Positions 2,410-44,794 of a DNA stretch of 53,056 nt are shown piece by piece (the first letter of the stretch is position 1; every line of letters starts with the position of its first letter). Position numbers and translations under genes: made by a program. The notes below the pieces were generated by a model. That model did no database searches. It saw only the letters and a list, made by a program, of their open reading frames with translations, and was not told where the DNA came from. Origin of the DNA: Candidatus Tayloriibacteriota bacterium. GTDB taxonomy: Bacteria > Patescibacteriota > Minisyncoccia > Phycocordibacterales > CAIZLB01. The stretch lies in assembly GCA_018883165.1 (NCBI GenBank), contig VEQN01000004.1:1-53056 (forward strand). Direction: 5' to 3'.

Positions 2410-2904
2410 CTATCTCTTTGTGGTTGTGGCTGTATTCTTTGCTTCAACTTTAGGCATATTATCAACGTCCACAGAAGACTTATTCGTATTAGGTTCAGCT
2501 ATGATTGGTCCAACATTAATAATCTTGTGTCTTGACGGACTGTATACAATTGCCAACTCTTTATAAATCAAGACCGCATCATCATTCTGTACATCTCTAA
2601 AAAATGCCTGCTGTTCCTTCAACTTTTGTGCATCTTGTACATACAGAATCTGTTCTGGATTCTGAGCTGGAAGAACCATAAGCTTCGATACATTTTTTAG
2701 CACTGCACTGTTTTTATTCGCCATCAATTTTTGCTGATATGATGGATTCTTTATCTGATAGAGTTGATATTGTGAATACACAAAGCCGGCCAGGACAATG
2801 AGAAAAAGTAGCTTAAAAAAACCACCTCCCCGCTTTTTCTTTTTAATTTCCAATGGAGAATTTGGAACGTTTACATCAATTCTTTTTTTATCAATATCAA
2901 CCAT
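2410..2904 (-). CDS. Hypothetical single-pass membrane protein, paralog of 7881..8351
   Basis: Basic patch plus TM helix. The core VLKNVSKLM...QQAFFRDVQNDDAVLIY...AIVYSPSRHKIINVGPI aligns by eye with the 7881 ORF. Confidence 0.8.
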   Translation of the reverse strand: MVDIDKKRIDVNVPNSPLEIKKKKRGGGFFKLLFLIVLAGFVYSQYQLYQIKNPSYQQKLMANKNSAVLKNVSKLMVLPAQNPEQILYVQDAQKLKEQQAFFRDVQNDDAVLIYKELAIVYSPSRHKIINVGPIIAEPNTNKSSVDVDNMPKVEAKNTATTTKR

Positions 2905-2996
2905 TTTGTGTATATTTTTAGCTTATCTAATATGTATAATCATATAAAATTTAGAGAAATAACTCAACTTAACTCTCCCCAAATTCTATAGGTAAA

Positions 2997-5900
2997 CTAC
3001 TGTTCTGTAGTAACAGGTTCCGTATTACTAGATATAGCAGTGTTTGCGGTTGTCTCTGCAGGCGGAACTTCCTCCTGAGGCTGATCTGCAACTGGAGTAG
3101 CAGAATCTGAATCTGATGGAGCAGAGTCAGCCACCGGTTCGGAGTCAGAAGATGTCTCTACTGGTGGTGTATCAACAGATGAAGTCGCATTCTCAATTGG
3201 AGCTGTATATGGCGCCGCACCTGCATTGTGTATGAGCATTTGTTTAAATTGATCTTTTGTTACACACACGTCATCAACACAGATATCACCATTTACATTA
3301 AATTTTTGACCGCCATCCTTAAACCAAGCAACCATATTCTCGATTCCAGACTTTAAAGTATCCAATTGATTTTTCAACTCTTTTACCGCACCTACCATAA
3401 CAGCTGTTATCTGATTGTATGACAACTCTCTTTGATCACTGAAAAGATCTGTAGATATCTTTGATACTGCGTTTGGAATTGCTAATTCAACATCTTGTGC
3501 CAAGAAACCGAGTACCGGCTGACCTGTTGGATTATTCTTCCATGTAAACGAAACTGGCTGAAGTTTAGATATTGCATCTAGTGCAATTGTAGAATCAAGA
3601 TCGAACTGGACATCCTTTAGACGTGCATCTGAGACTGCATTGAACTCCGATGCCAATATTCTACCCTGTGCACGAATTGAATATGAATTAGTTCCCGCTG
3701 AGGTTCCTGTACCTCCAGATGAATTCAACCATCCATATGTTTGATATGAATCAACTGTTGAATACACATCGAGTGGGAATGCTGGTGTAGATGTCCCTAT
3801 ACCAATGTTTCCTGCAAGCAGTGTTCCTGCTGAACTTCCTTGAGCTCCTGTGCCAATTCCAAGGACACCACTTGATATACGTGAGATACTTGTATCAAGT
3901 GTACCAATGTTCGCAGTAGCATTTCCGAAAGCAAGTTTTCCTGTAGATCCGAGACGGAAGTCTGCTGGGCCACCAGAGCCTGTTGTATCTGTCACAATCT
4001 GCCATGTAGAACCGAGGGTGTTATGACTACCGGAAATTGTCTGATTTACACTTCCACCAATTGTGATATTAGCATTCACGCTAGCAGCCTGGCCAACGAT
4101 CAATTGACCACTGATATTACCCGCTTGACCGACCGTAAGAACACCAGCACTACTCATGTTAAGCAATCGTGCATTTGTAGATGATGCGATTGTAAGCAAA
4201 TCTGTTGTGGCACCTGATGCTCCAGTAACTGCAAATCGAGCAATTGGAGTACTCGTACCAACACCAATGTTTCCAGCTGCAATACTTGCACCAGAGACAG
4301 TGTTCATATTTGTACCCCACAACACTCCACCAATGTTTAATGTATAGTTTGAACTGCTTGAAGGTGTACTTACACCGTCACCGTTGTTACCAGATCCAAT
4401 AACAATATTACCTGTTCCACCAGTTAGGGTGTATCCAGCTTTCATACCCAGCGCCACGTTGTAATGACCACTCGTCAAACTGTTCAACGCGTATGAACCG
4501 ACAGCAGTGTTTGAAATACTTGTAGAAATAGCAGTGAGTGCATCATATCCAATCGCTACGTTGTCCGGCCCACTCGTTGAAGCATCAAGTGCATTCATAC
4601 CTACAGCAATATTTCTTTGTCCCGATGAGATTAACATACCTGCACCTCTACCAACAGCAACGTTGTTTGCACTTGATGAGTTTACGGATTGTAGCGCAGT
4701 GAAACCAATGGCAGTATTTGAGCTTCCCGACGCACCTGTATTACCCGCACCACCGACATATATGTTTGACTGGGTTGTTGAAGCAGCCAAGAGTAATGTT
4801 GTATCTCTTACCAAGAACGATCCTGCCGAACCTAATATATTTACACCTCCACTAATTGTACTAGTTCCAACTACCGCTAAAGTTGATACTGGGGAGGTTG
4901 TACCAATTCCAACATTACCAGATGTATCAATTGTCATTCTCGTGGTACTTGAGGTCATAAACGCCAATGACCTGCCCGATCCGGTACCTGAATTTTCAGT
5001 TCCAATTCTAAATACATTAGTATCCCAATTAAAGGCACCCCTTTCATAGTTAGTAGCAGAAGAATAGGTATTATACAATCTAAAATTTCCAGCGGTTGAA
5101 CCATTTCTAAGAGCAAGTGTCTGTGCAGCTTCTGAAACCATAACTGAAATATTCCCACCACCTTGATCGATTTGGAAACTTCCATACCCAGTACGAGAGA
5201 GATTATCTATGGCCACATTACCAGCCCCTCCAACAGTAATATTACCCCCTGATGCATACGCGCTTCGTAGACTTATAACGATACCTGAGCTAGATGACGA
5301 TGTCACAGAAAGGCCGTTCAATGAATTGATACTTGTGTCACCGTTTGCTGCAACCGTAAATACACCTGCGTTTGTCGATGAGGCTAATCTAAACAATTCC
5401 GTAGTAGCACCTGATGCACCTAGAACTGAGAGTCTTGCAACAGGGGTACTTGTTCCGACACCTACATTACCAATAGAATAAGAAATATCGTTTCCTGATG
5501 TCACCCATTGACTCGGGGTGACACCAAGTGACGAGGTTGCAACCCACTGTGCACCTGTACCTGTTGACTGAAGTACCATACCTGATGTTCCAGAATCCCC
5601 GTTTATCCTAAATCCTCCCGTAAGGTTGATATCACCTGCTACAGTTAATGCATATCCTGGAGTTGAGGTTCCAATCCCCACATCCCCCGCTTGTGTAATT
5701 CTAAACAAAGATGGTCCTGTTGATGATGCAAAGTCGACAACATCTTTTCCTGCTTGTGCTTGTACGAACAATGTAGTTGATGTTGAGGTTGTACCCATGG
5801 ATAGGTTTCGTACGATGAGGTCACGCCAGGTGCCAGTTGTGCCGCTATTTATTTCAAGTGCACCAGTAAATGCACGTGAAATTCCAGCATCATACGTCCC

Positions 5901-7730
5901 CGCTGTGGCATTATTCGTGTACTGTGTCCAACCTATTTGCCCATTTGCTGACAAAGCATGATGAGTGATATTTATGGCATGTTGAGCTCCAAGAGTAGTC
6001 AAACCCGACATTGGACCTATATGTATATTACCTGAGGTGGTTGTGATGCTTCCAGCCTGATTAATATTCAATGTCCCAACAGCGACGGTACCTGCGCTCG
6101 AAACAGAAAGTAATGCTGAGTTTGTTGAGGAGGCAACTGTAAATATCGGGTCTGTTGCACCAGATACACCAGTAACTGAAAGTCTCGCAGCCGGTGTAGA
6201 TGTACCTATTCCCAAACCACCATTAGCGGTAACAACACCAAGGATGGAATTATTTACATCGAGCCATTGTTGCAGATCAGCTGTTTGTCCGGTCCTCCCT
6301 TTTATAGCAACAGCAATTGTACTGGATGATCCAGAATCAAACATTGCAGTCTGCTTGACGGTCAACGCAGGACTCGAAGTACTGAATGTGCCATTAGATA
6401 CGTTCATGTATACCGCATATGATGGTGTGATATAGAATCTCTGTACATAACTTGAATCCAGAATCTCAAAAATATTTGATGATTGACCAGAAGCTGTCTG
6501 CAATATAAATCCACGAGATGTTGGGGATTGCATCTTAATAGCAAGATCTGCACTTGGTGAAGATGTCCCTATACCCACATTTCCACTGTAATAAATATTT
6601 GAACCAGATGTTACCCACTGACTTGAAGTTATTCCTAGAGAACTTGTAGACACATCCCCTGTAAGTCCTCCAATCGAAGTTACACCAGAGTTTGTGAGGG
6701 TGTTTCCACTCCAAGACAAACCGGTCCCTGCAGTAATTCTTGTGGAAGGTGTGTTCCAAAAAGCAGAAATATTTGTTGTTGATGCATATGCAAGTGCCCA
6801 TTCTGTTGTTGATGCAGTAAATGGAATAGCATATCCAGAAGTAAGCGAGGTGAGTCCTGTACTGTTATCATATGAAAGACCAGCAACACTTGTAGAGAAC
6901 ATTGACCTCACAGTTGAGGTAGAAACCATCGCTTGAATTGTTGAGGTTGCGGCATTGATCCGTGCATCAACGCGTGAGTCAGTAAAATACAAATTTGTAC
7001 CTTCCACTAAATCTGAGGTAGAGAGAGATGAGGTTGAAAAACTTAGAACACCAGATGATTGATCATACGTGAGTACACCACCAGATACAGAGACAGATGC
7101 TCTGGCGGACGATGTAGAGAATGACGTTGCCGGACTACTACTACCCAAAGCAGTAATCTGTTCCCGAAGTGGTGCAAGGGCCAATTCAATATCATTTACT
7201 ACCTGCCTTGAAGATGTAGTGTCAGATGATGGTATGGAGTATGTGCCACCCGATGTGGTATATGTGTTATATATATTCTGAGTTACGGGTTGCACGAGGA
7301 CACGCTCACCTCGTGCCAACTCCAAGTCACTTACTCTTTTTCTGAGCTGATTTAATTGAGTACTGAGTACTGTATCAACCTGTTTTGATGTTGGCGCTGT
7401 ATACGTAGGTAGAGACACACTTCTGCGAGCCACATTGTTAACTGGATTAGTTTCCTTTTCTTTTATAGTTTCAGTAACTCTGTCTCGAGTATAGATTGGT
7501 TCAATTGCTCCAGAGCCAAAATTCACCAACTTATCAAACACAGAACGAACAACTTCTGAAATCGAAGCGACTTGTGTCTTTGTGTCTGGATTGAATACTC
7601 TCTTTTTCTCGAGTTCAAATACCGGTTTTTTATATACCGCCTCGACAATTTTTTTTGAGTTAAGTGACTGATATACCCCTGAGATATCTATAGCTACAGC
7701 ATCTTTAGGTGTAGACAAAAAGATACACAT
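2997..7730 (-). CDS. Large secreted fibre/adhesin-like protein with C-terminal peptidase S74 intramolecular chaperone (true start probably upstream, see findings)
   Basis: Seven G[NDG]xG[IV]GT(S/T)(T/S)P repeats, an EGTNLYFTDSRVDARI fibre motif, N(T/V)A(I/V)G repeats, S74 motif SDARLK...GFLAQDVE...LSYNQIT, and an acidic Pro/Thr tail. Confidence 0.85.
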   Translation of the reverse strand: MCIFLSTPKDAVAIDISGVYQSLNSKKIVEAVYKKPVFELEKKRVFNPDTKTQVASISEVVRSVFDKLVNFGSGAIEPIYTRDRVTETIKEKETNPVNNVARRSVSLPTYTAPTSKQVDTVLSTQLNQLRKRVSDLELARGERVLVQPVTQNIYNTYTTSGGTYSIPSSDTTSSRQVVNDIELALAPLREQITALGSSSPATSFSTSSARASVSVSGGVLTYDQSSGVLSFSTSSLSTSDLVEGTNLYFTDSRVDARINAATSTIQAMVSTSTVRSMFSTSVAGLSYDNSTGLTSLTSGYAIPFTASTTEWALAYASTTNISAFWNTPSTRITAGTGLSWSGNTLTNSGVTSIGGLTGDVSTSSLGITSSQWVTSGSNIYYSGNVGIGTSSPSADLAIKMQSPTSRGFILQTASGQSSNIFEILDSSYVQRFYITPSYAVYMNVSNGTFSTSSPALTVKQTAMFDSGSSSTIAVAIKGRTGQTADLQQWLDVNNSILGVVTANGGLGIGTSTPAARLSVTGVSGATDPIFTVASSTNSALLSVSSAGTVAVGTLNINQAGSITTTSGNIHIGPMSGLTTLGAQHAINITHHALSANGQIGWTQYTNNATAGTYDAGISRAFTGALEINSGTTGTWRDLIVRNLSMGTTSTSTTLFVQAQAGKDVVDFASSTGPSLFRITQAGDVGIGTSTPGYALTVAGDINLTGGFRINGDSGTSGMVLQSTGTGAQWVATSSLGVTPSQWVTSGNDISYSIGNVGVGTSTPVARLSVLGASGATTELFRLASSTNAGVFTVAANGDTSINSLNGLSVTSSSSSGIVISLRSAYASGGNITVGGAGNVAIDNLSRTGYGSFQIDQGGGNISVMVSEAAQTLALRNGSTAGNFRLYNTYSSATNYERGAFNWDTNVFRIGTENSGTGSGRSLAFMTSSTTRMTIDTSGNVGIGTTSPVSTLAVVGTSTISGGVNILGSAGSFLVRDTTLLLAASTTQSNIYVGGAGNTGASGSSNTAIGFTALQSVNSSSANNVAVGRGAGMLISSGQRNIAVGMNALDASTSGPDNVAIGYDALTAISTSISNTAVGSYALNSLTSGHYNVALGMKAGYTLTGGTGNIVIGSGNNGDGVSTPSSSSNYTLNIGGVLWGTNMNTVSGASIAAGNIGVGTSTPIARFAVTGASGATTDLLTIASSTNARLLNMSSAGVLTVGQAGNISGQLIVGQAASVNANITIGGSVNQTISGSHNTLGSTWQIVTDTTGSGGPADFRLGSTGKLAFGNATANIGTLDTSISRISSGVLGIGTGAQGSSAGTLLAGNIGIGTSTPAFPLDVYSTVDSYQTYGWLNSSGGTGTSAGTNSYSIRAQGRILASEFNAVSDARLKDVQFDLDSTIALDAISKLQPVSFTWKNNPTGQPVLGFLAQDVELAIPNAVSKISTDLFSDQRELSYNQITAVMVGAVKELKNQLDTLKSGIENMVAWFKDGGQKFNVNGDICVDDVCVTKDQFKQMLIHNAGAAPYTAPIENATSSVDTPPVETSSDSEPVADSAPSDSDSATPVADQPQEEVPPAETTANTAISSNTEPVTTEQ

Positions 7731-7825
7731 GAGTGCAACAAAGATAAAACCGATTTTGGTTTTAAAAAAAATTCATTGGCCTTTGTGTGTAGTATATCAC
7801 TTCTAGCCTTATTTCATAAAGAAAA

Positions 7826-7855
7826 AATGTGGAAAAGATTTAACTTTTCCACATT
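7826..7855. terminator. 12-bp inverted repeat downstream of the 7881 gene; arms resemble DnaA boxes
   Basis: aatgtggaaaag-atttaa-cttttccacatt. Confidence 0.5.
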
Positions 7856-7880
7856 AATTTCTTTAGATACATCTGAGAAA

Positions 7881-8351
7881 TTATTTCTTAGATTTTGTTG
7901 TAGTAGCAGTAGTTGTTGCTTTGGTTGTACTTGCAGTCACAGTCTCCTTTTTCGCAGTTGTCTTTTGCGCAGTTACAGGAAGAATGTTCACGATAATATC
8001 TCGTGATGGGCTGTAGATAATTGCTCTACCTTCTTTCATAAATACAAGAATTTTGTCACCGTTAATTGCACCTTTAAAGACAGGTTGTTGTTCAATCATT
8101 GTCTTGGCATCGGTGATAGTGATCACATCTGGAGCTGATGGTTCCTGAATGAGGACCAGCTTGGCAACATTTTCCAATATCTTTTTATTTTCCTCAATAT
8201 TCGCTTTAGTGATTGAGCCTTGTGTATTGGCCATATTCTTTGGTGAATTACCTTTCATGTAGGACAAAGACCAGAAAATTCCAATCAATACAAGTATCAC
8301 TACAATGATTTTTACCTTCATACTATTTTTCTTTGGTTGATTTAATTCCAT
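7881..8351 (-). CDS. Hypothetical single-pass membrane protein, paralog of 2410..2904
   Basis: N-terminal TM helix; core ILENVAKLV...QQPVFKGAINGDKILVF...AIIYSPSRDIIVNILPV; Thr/Lys-rich tail. Confidence 0.8.
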   Translation of the reverse strand: MELNQPKKNSMKVKIIVVILVLIGIFWSLSYMKGNSPKNMANTQGSITKANIEENKKILENVAKLVLIQEPSAPDVITITDAKTMIEQQPVFKGAINGDKILVFMKEGRAIIYSPSRDIIVNILPVTAQKTTAKKETVTASTTKATTTATTTKSKK

Positions 8352-8433
8352 ATACGCGTACGTAAAAACTTTATATAAAGTATATCACCTATAGAAAGAG
8401 TACACTACCAAAAAGGTGATACCTGTGGAAATC

Positions 8434-10047
8434 TTATACCAACTTTATGAGCTCCAAAATGGTATCTTTAGCCACTTGAGGATTTACTGATCCTTTGGTG
8501 AGCTTCATAATCTGACCAACAAAGAATTGAATTGATGCTTCCTTCCCTGCTTTGTAGTCCGCGATAACGTTTGGGTTTGCAGCAAACAATTCCTCAATCA
8601 TTTTCTTCAGTGCTTCAGGATCGTTCTTTTGAATCATACCTCGTGCTTCTGCTATTTGTTTTGGAGTATTCTTTGAAACATCATCGATATCCACCTGCTC
8701 CACACTCCAATATAGTGCAATTAAATCTTTTGCACCTCGAGATGATAGTTCACCAGCAGAAATCATGTTAATGATTTCTGCGAATGCATCTTTTGATATT
8801 TGAATGAGATAAGATCCAGGTTCTCCCTTTTTATCTGTCACTGATTTCTTCACCAGACCAGCAATATCAGAAGTAATGTAGTTAATTGCTAACTTTATTT
8901 TCTCTGACTCGATTAATTTTTCAGCAACTTGTGTGAAAAAATTTCTAAACATTTCATTCTGCACAAACATCTCAGCATCTTCGTCTTTCATTGCGAAATC
9001 ATCTTTGTATGTCGCACGCATGTCCCAAGGAAGTTTTGGTAGTTGAATTGAATCTTTAGAGAACACTTCAGACACAATCAATTTTGGAAGATCTGGATCT
9101 GGGAAATATCGGTAATCGTGAGAATCTTCTTTTGCTCTCTGTGAAAATGTTTTACCAGTTGTCTCATCAAATCCCCTTGTTTCTTGGACTATTTTCAACC
9201 CTTTCTCTTTGAGAGTTGCGTCATCTGCACCCGAAGCACGAAGCTCCTCAGATCTTTCAAGAATATCAATATGTCTCTCTAGTTCATACTCAATTGCTCG
9301 TTCAACTGATTTGAATGAGTTCAGATTTTTAACTTCTACTTTTGTGCCGAAAGTTTTAAAGTCGTACGGTAACTCATGTGCTCTCGGGTTATCTGATACA
9401 GAAATATTTGCTTCAACTCGCATCTCTCCCTTTTCCATATTTGCTTCACCGGCTCCAAGTGTTCGAAGGAGTAGTTGTAATTCTTTTGCAAAATTCGCAG
9501 CAGTTTTTGCATCATGAATACAAGGCTCCGTTACAAGTTCCATGAGTGGAAGACCTGCTCGATTGAAATCAACCAAACTAAATGATCCTTTGTCATGACT
9601 TGAACTCGCTGTGTCTTCTTCAAGGTGAATTCTTGTCAGTCTTACAGTATGCATTCTAACTTGACCAGTCTCTGGATCGAGATCTTTAGGATCACCTTTT
9701 ACAACAAGTGATCCACCTTTTACAAGTGGATATGCATACTGACTGATCTGATACCCCTTTGGTATATCAGGATAGAAGTAGTTTTTTCGATCCCACTCAG
9801 TGTACTCTGCAATTTCAGATCCAAGCGATGTTCCAACCTTAATTACATGCTCGATAGCTTTTTTGTTCAATGTAGGCAGTGTCCCCGGATGACCCATACA
9901 AATGGCACAGATATTTGTATTCGGTTTTTCTTCATCGGGATTGTTTTTGCATGCACAAAACATTTTAGAGTTAGTCTTCAACTCGGCATGTATTTCAAGT
10001 CCAATTACTGGATAGTATTTTTTACCATTTGGTCGAGTGATGATCAT
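8434..10047 (-). CDS. gatB: Asp/Glu-tRNA amidotransferase subunit B
   Basis: IGLEIHAEL, RKNYFYPD, HLEED, DFNRAGLPLMELVT, EVKNLNSF and DYRYFPDPDL motifs. Confidence 0.97.
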   Translation of the reverse strand: MIITRPNGKKYYPVIGLEIHAELKTNSKMFCACKNNPDEEKPNTNICAICMGHPGTLPTLNKKAIEHVIKVGTSLGSEIAEYTEWDRKNYFYPDIPKGYQISQYAYPLVKGGSLVVKGDPKDLDPETGQVRMHTVRLTRIHLEEDTASSSHDKGSFSLVDFNRAGLPLMELVTEPCIHDAKTAANFAKELQLLLRTLGAGEANMEKGEMRVEANISVSDNPRAHELPYDFKTFGTKVEVKNLNSFKSVERAIEYELERHIDILERSEELRASGADDATLKEKGLKIVQETRGFDETTGKTFSQRAKEDSHDYRYFPDPDLPKLIVSEVFSKDSIQLPKLPWDMRATYKDDFAMKDEDAEMFVQNEMFRNFFTQVAEKLIESEKIKLAINYITSDIAGLVKKSVTDKKGEPGSYLIQISKDAFAEIINMISAGELSSRGAKDLIALYWSVEQVDIDDVSKNTPKQIAEARGMIQKNDPEALKKMIEELFAANPNVIADYKAGKEASIQFFVGQIMKLTKGSVNPQVAKDTILELIKLV

Positions 10048-11054
10048 ATATGCTGTGTTATATATTCGCTTAATCTTTTTAGTGAATCTATATCATATGC
10101 AGATACAGTGAGCATGTCTTTTGTTGATCCATCCTTGTTCTTCAGCACACCAGAGGATTCGAACAAGTCACGTATATCTGAAAGTAGACCATCGAGATCC
10201 TGCGGAGAGACAACATCAGTCTTTGTTATGACAATAACTTCTTTTTTATCTGCCATACCCTCATCGTACGATTCAAGTTCTGATCGAATCGTCTTGTATA
10301 CATCTAAAACATCTTTAGCAGTTCCATGCTCAAGTGAAATACAATGGAACAATGCTTTTGTTCTTCGTATGTGTCTTAAGAATTTATGACCAAGACCTTT
10401 ACCATCAGCAGCACCTTCTATGAGGCCTGGAATATCTGCAATTATCTTCCCGTACAGAGCACCGAGATTAGGTTCAAGTGTTGTGAATTCATACGCACCA
10501 ACTTTTACGTTTGCTTTTGTGAGAGCATTCAACAAAGAAGATTTGCCAGCATTTGGAAGGCCAACAAGTCCAACATCCGCAATGAGCTCTACTTCTATAT
10601 AGAAATCAGCTTCCTCACCATTTTTGCCCGGTGTCCACTCCTCAGGAGTTTGATTGGTCGGACCTTTAAATCTTTCGTTACCCATGCCACCATTACCCCC
10701 TTTAAGTATTAAAATCTCCTGACCCTCTTCGTCAATCCTAAACTCATCTCCGGTTGTTTTATTTTTAATAACAGATCCAACAGGAAGGTCAATGTACAGA
10801 CTCTCACCATTTGCTCCATGTTTACTACTATTACCTCCCGGCTGACCATTCTCTGCATTAAACTCACGTATATTCTTGTATCGAGCAAGGAGCATGGTAT
10901 CTCGTTTACCACGTACATATATATCCCCACCTCTACCACCATCACCTCCAGCGGGCCCACCGAACTCTTTAAATTTTTCATGCAACCATCGAACAACGCC
11001 GTTCCCACCTCGGCCTGCTCTCATATGCACCTCCATTTCGTCTATAAATGCCAT
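10044..11054 (-). CDS. obgE: GTPase ObgE/CgtA (start re-set to the ATG at 11054)
   Basis: MAFIDE...GRGGNG, GGDGGRGG, GLPNAGKSS, FTTLEP, DIPG and TKTD motifs. Stop overlaps the gatB start (ATGA). Confidence 0.96.
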   Translation of the reverse strand: MAFIDEMEVHMRAGRGGNGVVRWLHEKFKEFGGPAGGDGGRGGDIYVRGKRDTMLLARYKNIREFNAENGQPGGNSSKHGANGESLYIDLPVGSVIKNKTTGDEFRIDEEGQEILILKGGNGGMGNERFKGPTNQTPEEWTPGKNGEEADFYIEVELIADVGLVGLPNAGKSSLLNALTKANVKVGAYEFTTLEPNLGALYGKIIADIPGLIEGAADGKGLGHKFLRHIRRTKALFHCISLEHGTAKDVLDVYKTIRSELESYDEGMADKKEVIVITKTDVVSPQDLDGLLSDIRDLFESSGVLKNKDGSTKDMLTVSAYDIDSLKRLSEYITQHI

Positions 11055-11136
11055 AATATTACAAGAGACTATATCACGCGAAATCATTTTTCGCCATTTG
11101 CAGGGAAATCCCCTTTCTGCTACTATATTCCCATCG

Positions 11137-11364
11137 ATGGAAATTAAAACCATTCTACCTATTATTCAAATCGTCCTAGCCGTTTTAGTAACGGTGGCAA
11201 TTCTACTTCAGAAATCTGAAGCCGGTGCCGGAGGGGCGTTTGGTGGAAGTGACTCAGTATCTACCTGGAGAACACGACGAGGATTCGAGAAATTCCTCTT
11301 TGTATTCACTATTATCTTATCTGTACTATTTGTAGTAACAGCAGTAATAGCTCTCAATATCTAA
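11137..11364 (+). CDS. secG: Preprotein translocase subunit SecG
   Basis: 75 aa with two TM helices joined by LLQKSEAGAGGAFGGS...TRRGFEKFL. Confidence 0.92.
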   Translation: MEIKTILPIIQIVLAVLVTVAILLQKSEAGAGGAFGGSDSVSTWRTRRGFEKFLFVFTIILSVLFVVTAVIALNI

Positions 11365-11416
11365 GGTACTTTTCACAACATAATAATTAGGTAGAGGTTC
11401 ATTATTATTTACTTTA

Positions 11417-13138
11417 TTGAACGTGAAATCCCTAATCTCATCACTTAGACCTACCGAAAAACTTTTTTTCGGTATATGTGTTACCTTGATCGTACTAAGC
11501 GGTCTGTACATTCTTGACGCGCTTAACAAAAAATATTCTGTAGAGATGCCGATGTCTGGAGGAACATATACAGAAGGTATCGTCGGGTACGCAAGATTCA
11601 TAAACCCGGTACTCGCATTCTCAGATGCGGACAAAGACCTCATAACCCTCATATACTCAGGACTTCTTAAAGCTTCACCTGAAGGTAAGCTTGTGTCGGA
11701 TCTCGCTGAATCATGGAATGTCTCAGAAGATGGTCTAACATACACAGTTACACTGAAACCAAATCTTGTATTCCATGACAACTCACCCCTTACAACGGAT
11801 GATATTGAGTTCACAATCGAAAAGATGCGGGATCAAAACATCAAAAGTCCAAAAGCAGATATTTGGAATGGAGTAAAAGTGGAAAAAGTAAACGAACGAG
11901 AAATTAAATTCATACTTAAAAAATCATACGCACCTTTTCTTGAGAACCTAACATTTGGTGTACTTCCTAAACATGTCTGGAAAGATATTGAACCTCAAGC
12001 ATTCGATGTACATATACTTAACCGAGAACCAATTGGTTCAGGACCATACAAGATTAAAAAAGTTGATGTCGATACATCTGGCATATATCAATCATACAGA
12101 CTTGAATCATTTGAGAAATATGCGCTAAAAACTCCATATATTGATCAGGTAATTATCACATTCTTCAAGAATGAAGCCGATGCCCTCTCTGCATACAAGA
12201 GTGGTAATATTGATGCAATCGGAGGTATTTCTCCTGAAGCAGCTACGGAATTAAAAGAAGATGGTTACACAGTTACAGCAACTTCACTACCTCGTGTATT
12301 TGCACTCTTCTTGAATCAAAGTAGCGCACCAGTACTTACCAACAAGGAGGTACGAAAAGCATTGAATGAATCAGTCGATCGAAATCACCTCATTAATGAA
12401 GTCCTCAAAGGTTGGGGTTCACCGGAGCAAGGACCAATTCCAGAAGACCTTTACAATGAACCAATTCTAAGTGATGCGAGTGCGGCGACTGCTCAGCAGG
12501 CTCAGAGAATACAAGATACACAGAAGCAGCTGCTTGATAAAGGGTGGAAACTTGGAGCTGACAATGTACTTGTGAAAGAAACAAAGTCTGGTAAGAAAAC
12601 CGAAACAGTAAGACTCAGTTTCTCTATCTCAACTTCAAATATCCCAGAATTAAAGAAAACAGCTGAGATACTTAAAGACACATGGACAAAGCTTGGTGCA
12701 GATGTTACAGTACAAATATTCGAACCATCTGATTTGACCCAAAAGGTCATTCGCCCAAGAAAGTATGACTCTCTCCTCTTCGGAAATGTAATCGGACGAG
12801 ATCTTGATTTATACCCATTCTGGCACTCTTCTGAGAGAAATGATCCTGGCCTCAATATCGCCCTGTATACAAACATTAAGGCAGACAAAGCACTGGATAC
12901 ATTACGAACAGCCTCAGATGAATCGAAAAGAAAGGAAGCATTTGATGTGTTCAATGCGGAAGTGGCGAATGACATCCCTGCAATATTCCTTTACTCACCT
13001 GGATATATATATGCAACCAGTGATTCAGTAAAAAACATTCAACTGCAAAATATGACCTCAATATCAGAACGATTTATGAATATTGATAAGTGGTACATAC
13101 ACACAGAGAGAATTTGGAAAATTTTCGTACAAAATTAA
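11417..13138 (+). CDS. ABC transporter substrate-binding protein, family 5 (peptide/nickel), with N-terminal TM anchor
   Basis: IYSGLLK, DLAESW, FHDNSPLTTDDIEFT, PIGSGPY and VRKAL motifs; TTG start. Confidence 0.9.
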   Translation: MNVKSLISSLRPTEKLFFGICVTLIVLSGLYILDALNKKYSVEMPMSGGTYTEGIVGYARFINPVLAFSDADKDLITLIYSGLLKASPEGKLVSDLAESWNVSEDGLTYTVTLKPNLVFHDNSPLTTDDIEFTIEKMRDQNIKSPKADIWNGVKVEKVNEREIKFILKKSYAPFLENLTFGVLPKHVWKDIEPQAFDVHILNREPIGSGPYKIKKVDVDTSGIYQSYRLESFEKYALKTPYIDQVIITFFKNEADALSAYKSGNIDAIGGISPEAATELKEDGYTVTATSLPRVFALFLNQSSAPVLTNKEVRKALNESVDRNHLINEVLKGWGSPEQGPIPEDLYNEPILSDASAATAQQAQRIQDTQKQLLDKGWKLGADNVLVKETKSGKKTETVRLSFSISTSNIPELKKTAEILKDTWTKLGADVTVQIFEPSDLTQKVIRPRKYDSLLFGNVIGRDLDLYPFWHSSERNDPGLNIALYTNIKADKALDTLRTASDESKRKEAFDVFNAEVANDIPAIFLYSPGYIYATSDSVKNIQLQNMTSISERFMNIDKWYIHTERIWKIFVQN

Positions 13139-15259: not shown

Positions 15260-16456
15260 ATGGATAATATAATACGTGGATTTAAAAACATGAGAGAGAT
15301 ACTTCTCATTTTTGTATCTGTACTCATAGTTTCTTTTCATTTTTCTTCAGTATATTTCATCAACTCTTCATACCTCACGGGTATATTGAATGAAAAATTT
15401 GTTGGGTATTTATACACAGCCGGAGCATTCATAAATATCCTACTCTACTTAGGCCTCCCATACTTCCTTCGGAAGCAAGGGAATTTTAGATTAAGTATGT
15501 TGCTATTAATTCTTGAGGCAATTGCACTACTAGGTATTGCATTCGCTACGAGCCCAACACTGATTGTATTGTTATTCATACTACACTCAGCAGTAGGACC
15601 ACTACTTTTCTACACCCTCGATATCTTTCTAGAGCGTTTTGCTAGACCAGAGGATATGGGTAGCATGCGCGGAATATATCTTACGATGCAAAACATTCCA
15701 CCAATCATTACACCCTTCATTGCAGGCCTCATACTTACTCGCCCATCAAACTATTGGATCATTTACCTCATCGCGGCCGCATTCCTTGTCCCTTTAGCCA
15801 TAATACTTTTTTCATACTTCCGAAGTTTCAGAGACCAGGCGTATTACATCCTAGATTTGAAGGAGGCGGCAGCGCGTTTCTACAACAAGAAGAATGTATT
15901 TGATGTGTTCATCGATCATTGCCTCTTGCATCTCTTCTACGGTGTTACAGTTATATATCTACCAATATATCTCGCAGACCATATCGGTTTTAGTTGGAGC
16001 AGTATTGGTATCATTTTTAGTGTGATGCTTCTCCCTTTTGTCTTATTTCAAATTCCGATTGGAAACCTAGAGGACAAGTATCATGACGAAAAGCACGTAC
16101 TTGTTATTGGTTTCTACATCATGGCCGCAACATTTATGGTCATTCCTTTCGTTAAAGAAGCAAGTATTGTGGTATGGGCAACACTCTTGTTTACCAGCAG
16201 AATTGGTGCAAGTCTTGTGGAAGTCTCAAGCGAAAGCTACTTCTTCAAACATATTCACTCAGACAATGCAGGGTTTATCGGTTTCTTCCGAATGACAAGA
16301 TCTCTCCCTTTTTTCATTAGCCCCATTCTCATGACAATCGCTGTAACTTTCTTTGAATTCAAATACATCTTCCTGATTACAGGGTTACTAATGCTTCTGG
16401 GAGTACGATACACTCTCATGATCACTGACGATATGAAGAAACCTACTCAGCAGTAA
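15260..16456 (+). CDS. Major facilitator superfamily transporter
   Basis: About 12 hydrophobic segments in a 6+6 arrangement; GNLEDKY loop motif. Confidence 0.8.
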   Translation: MDNIIRGFKNMREILLIFVSVLIVSFHFSSVYFINSSYLTGILNEKFVGYLYTAGAFINILLYLGLPYFLRKQGNFRLSMLLLILEAIALLGIAFATSPTLIVLLFILHSAVGPLLFYTLDIFLERFARPEDMGSMRGIYLTMQNIPPIITPFIAGLILTRPSNYWIIYLIAAAFLVPLAIILFSYFRSFRDQAYYILDLKEAAARFYNKKNVFDVFIDHCLLHLFYGVTVIYLPIYLADHIGFSWSSIGIIFSVMLLPFVLFQIPIGNLEDKYHDEKHVLVIGFYIMAATFMVIPFVKEASIVVWATLLFTSRIGASLVEVSSESYFFKHIHSDNAGFIGFFRMTRSLPFFISPILMTIAVTFFEFKYIFLITGLLMLLGVRYTLMITDDMKKPTQQ

Positions 16457-17444
16457 TTCCAGCACAGGTATTAAATACCCTTGCCGTAACATTGTATTCA
16501 TCAATACTTTTCTTCAGGATAGCCAACTGTGAGTTATATTCAGCTACAATGGTATTGTACTCTGTTGCCTTGGCGGTATATGCATCACCTGTAAGCTGAT
16601 CTATTTCAGCTTTAAGTGCAGTGAGTCTCGCTTCTGTATATCCCAATGTCGTTTTCTCTGATTCTATTCGTTTCTTCAAATCATCATTAGGGAGTGCACA
16701 CGCAGAGAGCGGTTTACCGAAATGTTGTACGATGAGCCACTGTCTTTTTCCTTGATACATACCTTGTCCCACAGCAACTCCAATATCTCGGTACCTTGTA
16801 TCTAGAATATTCTTTTTGTGACCTGGGCTTGCCATCCACGCTGCGACAACCTGATCATCTCCTCCGAATATTCCGAGTGCTAAATTTTCACCCACAACGA
16901 TATATTCATACCCTGCCTTCTTTGCTACATCAGATACACTTTCACCTGATGGTGAGACGTGTTGAAAATATTGATTCTGAAACATGTCCTGCAATTTTGA
17001 TTCAGCGGCTTTAGAAAGTTTTGTATCGAGTGCAAGATATGGCAAACCGAGCTTCACTCGCTCTTTGTTTGTAAACGAGACGATACCAGATACAGAGAGT
17101 CTAACATCTGATGTTATTTGATTTGATACAACAGGAAGAAGATCATTTTTTGGTTGTACCCCTTGTGTATCACCCAACACGTTACTTGTTGTTGAGTTTG
17201 CATTAGTCACCGGACTACTAGTACCTGGAGTTGTAGTTCCTGTAGTAGGTATGTAGTTCTGGAGATCATTCAAGACTGTGGTTGAAGAAGCATTCAGAAT
17301 ACCTTTAAACTTTTCTTTGAAACTTGCAGCATATGGAGAATGTAGTGCATCAAATTTCTCAGGTAATTGTTTTAGCGGTTCTTGGAAATAGAACAAAGTG
17401 CCAAAGACAACGAGCAATATGAGGGCGGGACGGATAATAAACAT
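16443..17444 (-). CDS. CAP/SCP-domain protein with N-terminal TM and C-terminal coiled coil
   Basis: TNKER...LSKAAESK...YFQH...GENLA...WMASPGHKKNIL...DIGVAV. Confidence 0.88.
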   Translation of the reverse strand: MFIIRPALILLVVFGTLFYFQEPLKQLPEKFDALHSPYAASFKEKFKGILNASSTTVLNDLQNYIPTTGTTTPGTSSPVTNANSTTSNVLGDTQGVQPKNDLLPVVSNQITSDVRLSVSGIVSFTNKERVKLGLPYLALDTKLSKAAESKLQDMFQNQYFQHVSPSGESVSDVAKKAGYEYIVVGENLALGIFGGDDQVVAAWMASPGHKKNILDTRYRDIGVAVGQGMYQGKRQWLIVQHFGKPLSACALPNDDLKKRIESEKTTLGYTEARLTALKAEIDQLTGDAYTAKATEYNTIVAEYNSQLAILKKSIDEYNVTARVFNTCAGITAE

Positions 17445-22723: not shown

Positions 22724-24967
22724 TTATTGTGTCGGTGTTTTTCCTTCTTGAATTAATTTAATGTACGTCTCACCTTGTTCTTTGAATGCTGGTTCAATTT
22801 CAATTGCTTTTCTAATTTCTTCAATTGCTAATTGTCTCTGTCCGTTATTCAAGTATGCTGCTGCGAGTGATACATGATATTGAGGATTGTTAGGTTCTGC
22901 AGCAATCTTTTTCTTTGCGATCTCAATTACAAAATCATGTAGACCGAGTGAATCAGCACTTTGAATCACTTTAGGATCAGACAAAATTTCTAGATCATCA
23001 CCAAACACTTTCTTTGCTTCGTTAAGTTTCTTGTCATACATGTATGCGATACCAAGATATACTTTCGCATCTTTATTCTGTGGAGCAAGTGCCAGTGCTT
23101 GCTTATACACCTCAACTGCTTCTGCAGTTTTTCCCATCATAATGAGTGTTAATCCCTTTTGGTAAAGCAATGACTGCTTCTTTGGTGCAACTTTTTCAGC
23201 TTGATTAATATATTCCAGTGACTGATTCAAGAGTCCGACCTTCTGGAGGAATACACCGTAAAGTAGTGGAGCTCGATGATCCCCTGCTGTATCTGCAATT
23301 ATCTGTCGATAGTTTTCATCAACCACCGTTACATACTGCTCGATGACGTTCTTGTCCTTCACACCTGCAATTAACTGCGGAGTTACATCTGCGAGTCGTT
23401 CAATGATTTCTGTCTTTGCAAACGTGTTGTATGAAAGTGCATCTTTGAAGTATGAGAGTCTTCCTTCATATGTTGTTGCTCGTTTACCAAGCATACTTTC
23501 TGCACCAGGCTGAAATGATATTAAACCATCGATGAGTATACGACTCACTCGATATGGCTTGTATGCTGTGTGATATGTGGCAAAACCTACAATGATTGCA
23601 ATAAACAGCACTGCGATACCAGTAACGAGATCATCACGTACAATTGATGGTTCGGATTTTCGATCATCATCTACATTTTCATGTGTCACATACGCAAGCA
23701 GGAAGAAGAATATGATGTAACTTGTTAAGTTATCGAACACAAATATATTGTGCACAAAGTACGCAACAAGTAGCGCAGTGACAAGACTTTTTTCAAACAC
23801 ACTCCAATCTGAATCTTTTTTTCTTTTCCAGATGAGTACAAGAGCACTTACAAACAACAGTAGGTATCCTAATAGTCCTAAGATTCCACCTGATATCATC
23901 CAATCAAGAAATACATTGTGTGTTCGATCAAACCATTGCTCTTGATCATATATATTTGGATTGTAATATTTTCCGAAAACATAACTGAAGTTTTCTTGAC
24001 CCCATCCCAAGAGAGGTTTTTCAGCTACACCCTCTTTCGCAATATCCCAGAGTAATGTTCGTGATCGTCCCTGATTCTCAAGTACTGATGAGATATCAGT
24101 TGTGATCAAAGATGCAAATCGATACAACAATGGGCTATTTTTAACGAATTCTGTATTTTTAGTAAATCCAAGAATGCCAATTACTACTACAAAAAACACG
24201 AGAAGTCCCAATGCACTCTTTCTGAGCGCCTGGTTATTCTTTTCATATATTGCAATTAGTGCGGAACCGATGAGTACAGCAACACCAAGACCTACCACAG
24301 ATCCTCGAGTACCTGTGTTGTACATAACTACAAGATTGAAGAGAGATACTGCACCGAGAACCACATACAAGATTATTTGATCTTTGAATTTTGAATACGA
24401 TAATTTTGATATGAGGAAGATAGCTAAGAATGCGTGAAGGAGTGCATATATACCTAAGTATGTTGAATTACCAAGCCAGCCAGCAATACGAACAACTGAT
24501 GCCTCAGAGTTATTGTAGTCAGCAAAACCACTAAGACCAACGGCGACACTTGCAGCAAGTGAGATTGATAGTAGTGCATACCATGCCTGCTTAGTCTTAA
24601 CCACGGACGATGTAATGATGAAAAACGCAAATAGGTAGAGTATTGTTACATACCCTTCCATTCGTTCGAAGTTACTCCAGAAACTTCGATATGGATTTAC
24701 AGAATTAAGGGTTGCTATACCGAGTATTATGGTGAAGATAACTGTAGACCACAATACAATGTTTTTCTTTGGTAGGTATGATTTGTCTCGAAGAATCAAC
24801 CCAAGGTAAGAAATGAGACCAATACCAACAAAAGTTCTAAATGCTATTGCCTTACCTGTGATAAACGGGAAAAACAGTAAATCGTATTTCACGAAAGGTA
24901 CCAATAGGACACCTACGATAGCTCCCAGAGTGACATACTTTAATATCGAATCAAAAATCTTATTCAT
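22724..24967 (-). CDS. O-antigen ligase (Wzy_C/WaaL-like) family protein with C-terminal TPR repeats
   Basis: Multi-TM N-terminus, TGTRG, KPLLGWGQENF, THNVFLD and GGILG motifs; TPR-like helices (AVEVYKQALALAPQNKDA, PNNPQYHVSLA). Confidence 0.88.
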   Translation of the reverse strand: MNKIFDSILKYVTLGAIVGVLLVPFVKYDLLFFPFITGKAIAFRTFVGIGLISYLGLILRDKSYLPKKNIVLWSTVIFTIILGIATLNSVNPYRSFWSNFERMEGYVTILYLFAFFIITSSVVKTKQAWYALLSISLAASVAVGLSGFADYNNSEASVVRIAGWLGNSTYLGIYALLHAFLAIFLISKLSYSKFKDQIILYVVLGAVSLFNLVVMYNTGTRGSVVGLGVAVLIGSALIAIYEKNNQALRKSALGLLVFFVVVIGILGFTKNTEFVKNSPLLYRFASLITTDISSVLENQGRSRTLLWDIAKEGVAEKPLLGWGQENFSYVFGKYYNPNIYDQEQWFDRTHNVFLDWMISGGILGLLGYLLLFVSALVLIWKRKKDSDWSVFEKSLVTALLVAYFVHNIFVFDNLTSYIIFFFLLAYVTHENVDDDRKSEPSIVRDDLVTGIAVLFIAIIVGFATYHTAYKPYRVSRILIDGLISFQPGAESMLGKRATTYEGRLSYFKDALSYNTFAKTEIIERLADVTPQLIAGVKDKNVIEQYVTVVDENYRQIIADTAGDHRAPLLYGVFLQKVGLLNQSLEYINQAEKVAPKKQSLLYQKGLTLIMMGKTAEAVEVYKQALALAPQNKDAKVYLGIAYMYDKKLNEAKKVFGDDLEILSDPKVIQSADSLGLHDFVIEIAKKKIAAEPNNPQYHVSLAAAYLNNGQRQLAIEEIRKAIEIEPAFKEQGETYIKLIQEGKTPTQ

Positions 24968-25035
24968 GGTTACATTCTTATTTATATATATTGTATGAGT
25001 ATATCACGCCTATTATATGCTACAATTTGGCCCAT

Positions 25036-43020: not shown

Positions 43021-44794
<1,774 letters not shown>

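Follow-up and report, generated by a model that had tools for sequence, protein, structure and literature searches.

A host-encoded S74 fibre gene and its small membrane-protein neighbours in Candidatus Tayloriibacteriota

The stretch of Candidatus Tayloriibacteriota DNA analysed here (contig VEQN01000004.1 of assembly GCA_018883165.1, 53,056 nucleotides, hereafter the window) carries a giant gene for a tail-fibre-like protein and, on either side of it, a gene for a small membrane protein, termed A (downstream) and B (upstream). An earlier reading made from the letters alone (the sequence-only reading) had described three co-oriented genes at these positions, and this is confirmed: all of them are on the minus strand, between gatB and gap (Table 1). 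The description of this locus, namely its gene structure, its homologies, the size of the small-protein family, the domain layout and the neighbourhood statistics, is given with high confidence. The best explanation as a whole is a host-encoded surface fibre in a variable island, with A as a facultative partner and B as an incidental neighbour, and we consider its chances to be about evenly balanced.

The locus is flanked by rpe, rpiB and gap on one side and by gatB, obg, secG, SBP_5 and RNase J on the other. No phage structural, packaging or integration genes were found in the flanks, where all the identified genes are of housekeeping type, which bears out the earlier statement that phage genes are absent nearby. 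The GC content is even, with the locus matching its surroundings, and a complete 16S rRNA gene is present at 43225..44705. The housekeeping flanks, the 16S gene and the even GC content together indicate that the locus is chromosomal and not part of a prophage. No noteworthy tandem DNA repeats were found in the region.

Table 1. Coordinates of the genes, protein segments and putative signals of the fibre locus
Feature	Position	Strand	Size or residues	Description	Basis
Small paralog A	2410..2904	minus	164 aa		Open reading frame (ORF) call
Conserved ectodomain of A	2500..2676	minus	about aa 77-135		Alignments A1 and A2; fold from the AlphaFold2 (AF2) model of B
Transmembrane (TM) helix of A	2773..2829	minus	aa 26-44	GGGFFKLLFLIVLAGFVYS, with KKKKR just before	Hydropathy scan; basic residues on the N-terminal side
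Fibre ORF as listed	2997..7730	minus	1577 aa		ORF call
Acidic Ser/Thr/Pro-rich C-terminal tail	3000..3218	minus	about aa 1505-1577	Similar tails in homologs	Sequence reading
Post-S74 motif CVDDVCVT	3258..3281	minus		Within W.FxxGGxxFNVxGxxCVDDVCVTKDQFKQ	Conserved in Patescibacterial fibres
Peptidase_S74 intramolecular chaperone/autoprotease domain	3465..3632	minus	aa 1367-1422		Pfam PF13884, 44.5 bits versus a cut-off of 22
Repeat-rich segment	4017..4670	minus	aa 1021-1238	Phage tail-spike/tail-fibre families	phrog_4636 and phrog_1980
Beta-helix segment	4707..4988	minus	aa 915-1008	Resembles the trimeric beta-helix tip of the Bdellovibrio MAT fibre Bd3182
Probable true fibre 5´ end	7731..7776	minus		ATG 7776, then MNFFKTKIGFIFVAL-MCIFLSTPKDAVA/IDISG if the T run is 7
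T8 homopolymer (coding strand)	7764..7771	minus		Separates the start-codon frame from the ORF frame
Extended -10-like element GTGATATACT (TGnTATACT)	7791..7800	minus		Upstream of the fibre
Terminator-like hairpin	7826..7855	minus	12 pairs, then a T run	Between B and the fibre
Small paralog B	7881..8351	minus	156 aa		ORF call
GTGATATACT copy	8379..8388	minus		Upstream of B
GTGATATACT copy	24998..25007	minus		Upstream of a 747-aa membrane protein (22724..24967)

The S74 fibre and the start of its gene

The S74 domain was first described from phage tail spikes and fibres. In the window fibre, the Pfam profile score of this domain is above the gathering score, and the Ser-Lys dyad, defined by the motif SDxxxK (PMC10769870), is present as SDARLK (aa 1367–1372). 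By analogy with characterised S74 proteins, autocleavage is predicted before Ser1367. The protein also contains seven G-x-[VIL]-G-[IV]-G-[TS] modules (GxxGxGT), and its repeat-rich segment gives weak tblastn matches to tail-fibre and virion structural proteins of cyanophages and roseophages. A search against PDB sequences pairs the S74 domain with 6f45, a long tail fibre distal subunit (E 1e-4), and the beta-helix segment with 8ojn (Bd3182, E 4e-7) and 8ond (Bd2133, E 2e-3), entries whose identities are given in PMC10769870. The sequence-only reading had proposed an S74 fibre encoded by the host outside any prophage, and both parts of this proposal are supported, by the Pfam S74 match and the PHROG tail-fibre matches for the former and by the housekeeping flanks for the latter.

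A total of 245 fibre homologs is known from our searches, mostly of 1000–2700 aa with PF13884, and those with a named source are labelled mostly as Patescibacteria lineages. Some database labels read ‘tail fiber domain-containing protein’, while some homologs are labelled ‘trimeric autotransporter adhesin’ at the source or carry PF05658. P0152, the closest homolog, aligns over about a third of the protein, with 71% identity in that part. After the S74 domain, the fibres P0152, P0156, P0158, P0160, P0162–P0164 and others share the element W.FxxDGDRFNVxGxVCVDDVCVTK[DE]QFKQ, followed by an acidic Ser/Thr/Pro tail; this post-S74 element would belong to the fragment freed by autocleavage. No relatives of the C-terminal module with this motif were found in viral contigs (IMG/VR), and neither the Cys motif nor the acidic tail distinguishes the fibres with a small-gene neighbour from those without one. 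The best reading of the window protein is a phage-derived S74 fibre encoded by the host cell, and it is a further member of an already known kind, the S74 fibres encoded by cells and not by phages.

The tethers of the fibre homologs vary. A helix-turn-helix (HTH) domain and a TM helix are fused to the N-terminus of the fibre in L085 (4001..) and L088 (4001..), a separate small HTH-TM gene is located just upstream of the fibre in some loci (L088 2647..3378; L087 3580..3999), and in the fibres of L042 and L048 the acidic tail is followed by a C-terminal TM helix. A DNA-binding-like cytoplasmic domain such as the HTH is an odd element on a surface fibre.

The 5´ end of the window gene requires a correction of the listed ORF, which begins at ATG 7730 with MCIFLSTPKD and lacks a signal peptide. 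The 15 in-frame codons upstream of this ATG, following a TGA, encode IFFKTKIGFIFVAL, which joined to MCIFLSTPKDAVA constitutes a typical signal peptide. The T8 run shifts the sole upstream ATG (7776) out of frame by one base, and translation from this ATG gives MNFF and then a stop. With seven T, the gene would start as MNFFKTKIGFIFVALMCIFLSTPKDAVA/IDISG, a textbook Sec signal peptide. In assembled contigs, on which this comparison rests, two other metagenome runs (X1, X4) that are 97–98% identical over the stretch have one base fewer at 7764. At their N-termini, fibre homologs have a signal peptide, as in L018 (...LCPYSVRA/EDISITP), or a TM anchor. The 8-base run may be an assembly error, a phase-OFF variant or the site of a +1 slip on UUU UAA A. 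Three homopolymers of at least 8 bases are present in the 53 kb, two of them within the first 130 nt of the fibre gene (7764..7771 and 7649..7656). The fibre is most likely secreted, judging from this reconstructed start; the earlier claim of a secreted fibre fails for the ORF as listed, which has no signal peptide, and stands once the run is read as 7 bases, which brings the signal peptide into frame.

A terminator-like hairpin separates B from the fibre gene, and no terminator-like site was found between the fibre gene and A. The locus was not found in any RNA run. The exact 10-mer GTGATATACT occurs three times in the window, in each case just upstream of a minus-strand gene, including the fibre gene and B. 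This element is probably the promoter -10 element of the organism, and B is probably transcribed separately from the fibre.

The small paralogs and their family

A and B are 31% identical over 139 columns (BLASTP E 1e-15), and each of them reaches about 155 bits (E about 1e-47) against the hidden Markov model (HMM) of their family, whose alignment (A2) includes both. Hydropathy scans place in each protein a basic N-terminus followed by one N-terminal hydrophobic helix, and both end in a Thr/Lys-rich tail. The earlier description of two paralogs with an N-terminal TM segment and a Thr/Lys tail is therefore confirmed. The AF2 model of B, built with 60 homologs (predicted local distance difference test, pLDDT, 80.5), comprises a TM helix (11–32), a second helix (48–65) and a beta-alpha-beta-beta-beta domain (75–125), after which the Thr/Lys tail is disordered. 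The corresponding ectodomain of A shows the motif LP..P....D....QQ.FF....N.D..L.Y....AI.YSPSR..I.NVGP. Like the other members of its family, A is a bitopic envelope protein with N-in/C-out topology.

The nearest relatives of A are 47–55% identical to it, while those of B form a different set, with 50–55% identity. A and B belong to different subfamilies and are thus old paralogs, not the products of a local duplication. Scans with Pfam, NCBIfam and PHROG assign no family to either protein, and Pfam finds no LytR_C domain (PF13399) in them. Weak matches to DUF6715, LIC_11904 and TPR_21 cover the TM region alone; those to TPR_21 would explain the JGI label ‘negative regulator of RcsB-dependent stress response’. 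A prepilin identity was rejected on reading the sequences, which lack the motif G|F...E. An ATP synthase b-subunit identity was also rejected, with PDB profile matches at E > 0.04 and with the N-in topology and the LytR_C fusions of the family against it.

While an earlier word-indexed search had returned just 2 homologs of B, an exhaustive profile search yields 6,220 representative clusters at E <= 1e-3, of which 4,042 remain at E <= 1e-10. All the lineage names among them are Patescibacteria (Yonath-, Sacchari-, Paceibacterota, Magasanik-, Berkel-, Falkow- and Woesebacteria), the rest being unclassified ‘bacterium’ labels. The family is apparently Patescibacteria-wide and has so far been found in Patescibacteria alone; no relatives of the small proteins were found in viral contigs. 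Its members share a layout of TM helix, juxtamembrane helix and alpha/beta ectodomain of about 55 aa, followed by a Ser/Thr-rich tail or by LytR_C. The domain motif of the family, with which A and B agree, consists of the N-terminal TM segment and LP..P....D....QQPFF.G..NGD..L.Y....AIIYSPSR..IVNVGP. Pfam detects LytR_C after the family domain in 52 of 252 members (about 20%), and such fusions assign the family to the extracytoplasmic part of the cell envelope. The ~55-aa domain is not covered by any model in Pfam, NCBIfam or PHROG, and the profile search against PDB sequences returns only look-alikes of the TM segment plus helix (ATP synthase b, FliL), at E > 0.04. Three aspects of the family appear to be new: how large it is and how its members are built, the fusions to LytR_C, and the statistical association with fibre genes described below.

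Other settings of the family recur as well. In a second neighbourhood, the family gene follows ComEC and a split metallo-beta-lactamase (MBL) gene (L009, L017, L019, L023, L050, L059 and the Woesebacteria contig of P0284). Two members occur within a few kb of each other in L025, as two copies around one gene, and in L028, and tandem copies follow a 2382-aa protein and a beta-lactamase-like gene in L026. Unlike in the window, these local pairs (L025, L026, L028) are not placed around a fibre gene.

Fibre genes beside the family and the gatB–gap island

The neighbourhood of the family was analysed in 29 genome loci and 46 metagenome loci fetched via the conserved family motif (the forward sample). 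ORFs were called by a simple procedure of our own, family members were marked by the HMM, and fibres were recognised by their similarity to the window fibre and to the S74 region of that protein, with a jackhmmer profile for S74 in partial genes. Dereplication of the family members at 80% identity gave 58 clusters; kinship was handled crudely, by this dereplication and by the spread over subclades. An S74/fibre gene is located immediately upstream of the family gene and co-oriented with it in 15 of the 47 observable slots, versus 2 of 528 other genes (Fisher p 6e-16). This represents an enrichment of about 120-fold, and the two remaining fibres both lie two genes away.

The fibre-linked members are distributed over at least 8 subclades, interleaved with members located beside ComEC-MBL, RsmI, gatB, PPDK or other genes. 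The gap between the fibre and the small gene is 1, 3, 23, 27, 33, 38 or 45 nt in seven cases. The order is reversed in L091, where an A-type member (P0011) immediately precedes an S74 fibre. Within one tight clade, the genes that follow the small gene, for L28 and an M50 peptidase, are constant, while the upstream neighbour is either a fibre (L042, L048) or ComEC-MBL (L049, L050).

The reverse sample consists of nine fibre homologs (L082–L090) picked by homology and contig size, and no family member was found within 4 kb of the fibre in any of these nine loci. The sequence-only reading had suggested that homologs of the small proteins should be enriched beside fibre genes; this expectation holds when the sampling is centred on the family and fails when it is centred on the fibre. 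Fibres with no family member nearby often carry or adjoin another tether, such as an N-terminal HTH plus TM segment, a separate HTH-TM gene or a 194-aa TM protein, and these tethers hint at alternative partners.

The obg-gatB-fibre and fibre-...-gap orders recur in other, distant Patescibacteria genomes, with differing contents between gatB and gap. The closest fibre homolog (P0152, in L090) is found in the order gatB-fibre-gap, with neither small gene present. Other loci show gatB-fibre-(a different 194-aa TM protein)-LamG-gap (L083), gatB-fibre-fibre (L084), gatB-(HTH-TM protein)-fibre (L088) and fibre-LamG-small-gap (L001), and the fibre-small-gap order, as for A, is found in L011, L013 and L014. 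In L036, gatB is followed by an ortholog of B (55% identity) on a contig that ends right after it, so that no fibre is visible. The different gene combinations across genomes indicate that the gatB–gap interval is a variable surface-protein island. Two paralogs bracketing a fibre, the arrangement stressed in the earlier reading, are indeed present in the window and were seen in no other locus examined; the bracket is one combination among many.

Secreted proteins of 467–750 aa with repeated Laminin_G_3 domains were also observed beside fibres (L001 2777..4852; L083 10889..13141; L087 206..1609 and 9911..12025). They recur in the gatB–gap island and elsewhere, and may be a second component of the island.

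A candidate fibre partner, its alternatives and known parallels

Since the signal peptide of the window fibre looks cleavable and the protein lacks an anchor, another component must keep it on the cell. The obvious candidate for this task is the small family, whose members have a membrane anchor, face the outside, sometimes carry a fused wall domain and are encoded next to fibres beyond chance; A is in the conserved position. We tentatively propose that A serves the fibre as a facultative partner on the envelope side, a claim to which we give somewhat less than an even chance.

In the proposed mechanism, a fibre of about 1,590 aa would be exported by Sec and would form trimers assisted by its C-terminal S74 domain, which, if it behaves as in characterised S74 proteins, would then be cut off at Ser1367. 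The mature fibre would expose its distal, variable C-terminal tip and keep its N-terminus near the cell; the homologs with an N-terminal HTH and TM anchor (L085, L088) support the N-terminus as the cell-proximal end. Small-family members are the resident genes, and S74 fibre genes lie directly 5´ of them in the same orientation, frequently almost touching them, well above the chance rate. A, presumably co-transcribed with the fibre, would be made from the same transcript at the export site and might help to dock or assemble the fibre base at the interface of membrane and wall. B is a gatB-linked paralog, probably transcribed on its own, whose place upstream of the fibre is probably incidental.

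Several findings weigh against this proposal. About two thirds of the family members have no adjoining fibre and are found in unrelated contexts such as ComEC-MBL, RsmI-DedA, PPDK and gyrA. The N-terminal regions of the fibres that adjoin family members are mutually unrelated, and this speaks against a single conserved surface for binding at the base of the fibre. In comparisons of the small-protein model with folds in the PDB and BFVD, no match falls below E 0.06, leaving the ectodomain with no match that hints at a function. The forward counts cover the part of the family with a YSPSR-type motif, and related genomes among them are not independent. To these points are added the nine fibre-centred loci, none with a family member, and the closest fibre homolog, which does without either small gene.

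The main alternative, with a probability clearly under one half, is that the association is positional alone. The family would then be a general envelope protein, for example a scaffold for the attachment of wall glycopolymers, and fibres would gather in the islands that border its genes; in a variant of this explanation, fibres are kept beside family genes since read-through into a constitutively needed gene is harmless. A general envelope role is suggested by the 6,220 clusters and by the share of LytR_C fusions. Furthermore, the clade in which the downstream context is kept while the upstream gene switches between fibre and ComEC-MBL, the varied mixes of fibre, LamG protein, small gene and other TM proteins between gatB and gap, the empty reverse sample and the unrelated N-termini of adjacent fibres would all be expected from position alone. 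However, all 17 sampled S74 fibres are located within two genes of a small gene, 15 of them in the single upstream co-oriented slot, and an island effect alone would scatter them, so this concentration counts against a purely positional link. The short gaps in seven lineages (1–45 nt) suggest operons, and at least 8 subclades show the pairing, in differing surroundings.

The sequence-only reading had gone further, with both bracketing paralogs jointly anchoring, exporting or assembling the fibre as a three-gene cassette. The co-orientation of both paralogs around the fibre in the window, and the occurrence of family members downstream of a fibre in 15 loci and upstream in L091, are in its favour. 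This claim is not upheld: the hairpin and the separate promoter-like element set B apart from the fibre, the bracket was seen in the window alone, and the locus of the closest fibre homolog (L090) has no small gene. In addition, the ortholog of B in L036 follows gatB on a contig ending just after it, A and B are 31% identical members of different subfamilies that did not arise by local duplication, and an ordinary Sec signal peptide accounts for export. A joint cassette is therefore improbable. Least probable is the remnant of a prophage tail module, with a tail-fibre gene and small accessory genes (assembly chaperone, holin or spanin), which the PHROG tail-fibre matches and the S74 domain would fit but which is contradicted by flanks free of phage genes with a like GC content, by small proteins with no PHROG match, viral-contig relative or BFVD fold match, by a fibre C-terminal module absent from viral contigs, and by a gatB/gap position common to distant Patescibacteria.

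The proposal of A as a facultative partner can also be set beside known systems, the closest being the mosaic adhesive trimeric (MAT) fibres of Bdellovibrio bacteriovorus, specifically their S74 subgroup (Bd3182), which decorate the surface of the predator and bind prey, and whose cell-side docking element is explicitly an open question (Caulton et al. 2024, PMC10769870). Both are chromosomal tail-fibre-like proteins, and Bdellovibrio likewise lives on other bacteria. They share a signal peptide (in the window fibre, with the run read as 7 bases), a long repetitive shaft and a C-terminal S74 domain with SDxxxK, as well as direct sequence similarity at the Bd3182 tip (8ojn, E 4e-7). On the other hand, the host of the window fibre is probably a monoderm Patescibacterium and not a diderm predator, and the Patescibacterial fibre adds the post-S74 CVDDVCVTK motif and the acidic tail. 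A possible further difference is that its gene is often followed by one for a small bitopic membrane protein. In MAT fibres, the signal peptide is followed at once by a conserved beta-rich N-terminal domain of about 130 aa; searches of the PDB and Pfam with the whole protein give no match in aa 1–360 of the window fibre, although this MAT domain has no PDB structure (PMC10769870) and no direct alignment was made.

Phage S74 spikes and fibres, such as the K1F endosialidase and the T5 L-shaped tail fibre pb1, resemble the window fibre in the C-terminal S74 domain, the PHROG matches and the repeat-rich shaft. Unlike them, the window fibre is encoded outside a phage, has a Sec signal peptide and no baseplate to attach to, and is 3–5 times longer than most such proteins. 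Phage records give weak partial matches alone, with none in IMG/VR for the C-terminal module. Trimeric autotransporter adhesins of the YadA type follow a similar logic of a long, repetitive, trimeric adhesin. No C-terminal beta-barrel anchor of that type is matched by Pfam in the window fibre, whose C-terminus consists of the S74 domain and the acidic tail, and the window host, unlike theirs, probably has no outer membrane.

Regarding the small proteins, the LytR_C ‘solo’ proteins of Actinobacteria (VirR of M. tuberculosis; the LytR_C of LCP ligases) are also bitopic with an extracytoplasmic domain, and about a fifth of the family ends in LytR_C. A and B differ from them in having no LytR_C, and the ~55-aa domain that precedes LytR_C in the family matches no known family. 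A functional parallel between the two groups is possible. Lambda Tfa and T4 gp38, which are soluble cytoplasmic chaperones, are likewise encoded by a small co-oriented gene immediately 3´ of the fibre gene. Proteins of the A/B type differ in being membrane-anchored with a domain outside the cell, in having no PHROG match and in being located mostly away from fibres. A and B lack the homology to a phage protein family that would mark them as phage fibre assembly chaperones, with no PHROG match, no viral-contig relative and no BFVD fold match.

All the Patescibacteria cultivated so far live attached to other microbes (PMC11623550), and the structures so far linked to their attachment to the host are chiefly type IV pili and unnamed adhesins. 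Patescibacteria genomes commonly encode giant S74 ‘tail fiber domain-containing’ proteins, and no papers on S74 fibres in Patescibacteria were found in the searchable literature. A large uncharacterised membrane family beside fibre genes is a testable candidate for the missing link that holds these fibres, and the test is feasible now that Saccharibacteria are genetically tractable. In its widest form, the idea would make the small family an envelope docking or assembly element for phage-derived fibres throughout the Patescibacteria, equivalent to the sought surface partner of the MAT fibres, with other tethers (HTH-TM modules, C-terminal TM helices) substituting for it and with the window fibre switched by 8/7-base slippage, the whole constituting a modular, phase-variable host-attachment system of episymbiotic bacteria; we regard this extension as unlikely. 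If the link turns out to be merely positional, the family is still a large, Patescibacteria-specific envelope family with LytR_C fusions that deserves a name, and the gatB–gap island is still a useful marker of surface-protein turnover.

Finally, two observations concern other parts of the window. The 16S gene stands alone: the 53 kb contain no 23S, 5S or tRNA gene, which means that the rRNA genes are not linked in this genome segment. The gene at 16443..17444 encodes a secreted CAP/SCP-domain protein, and homologs of it are located one or two genes downstream of a small-family gene in the RsmI-small-DedA-CAP context of other genomes (L022, L029, L034, L070).

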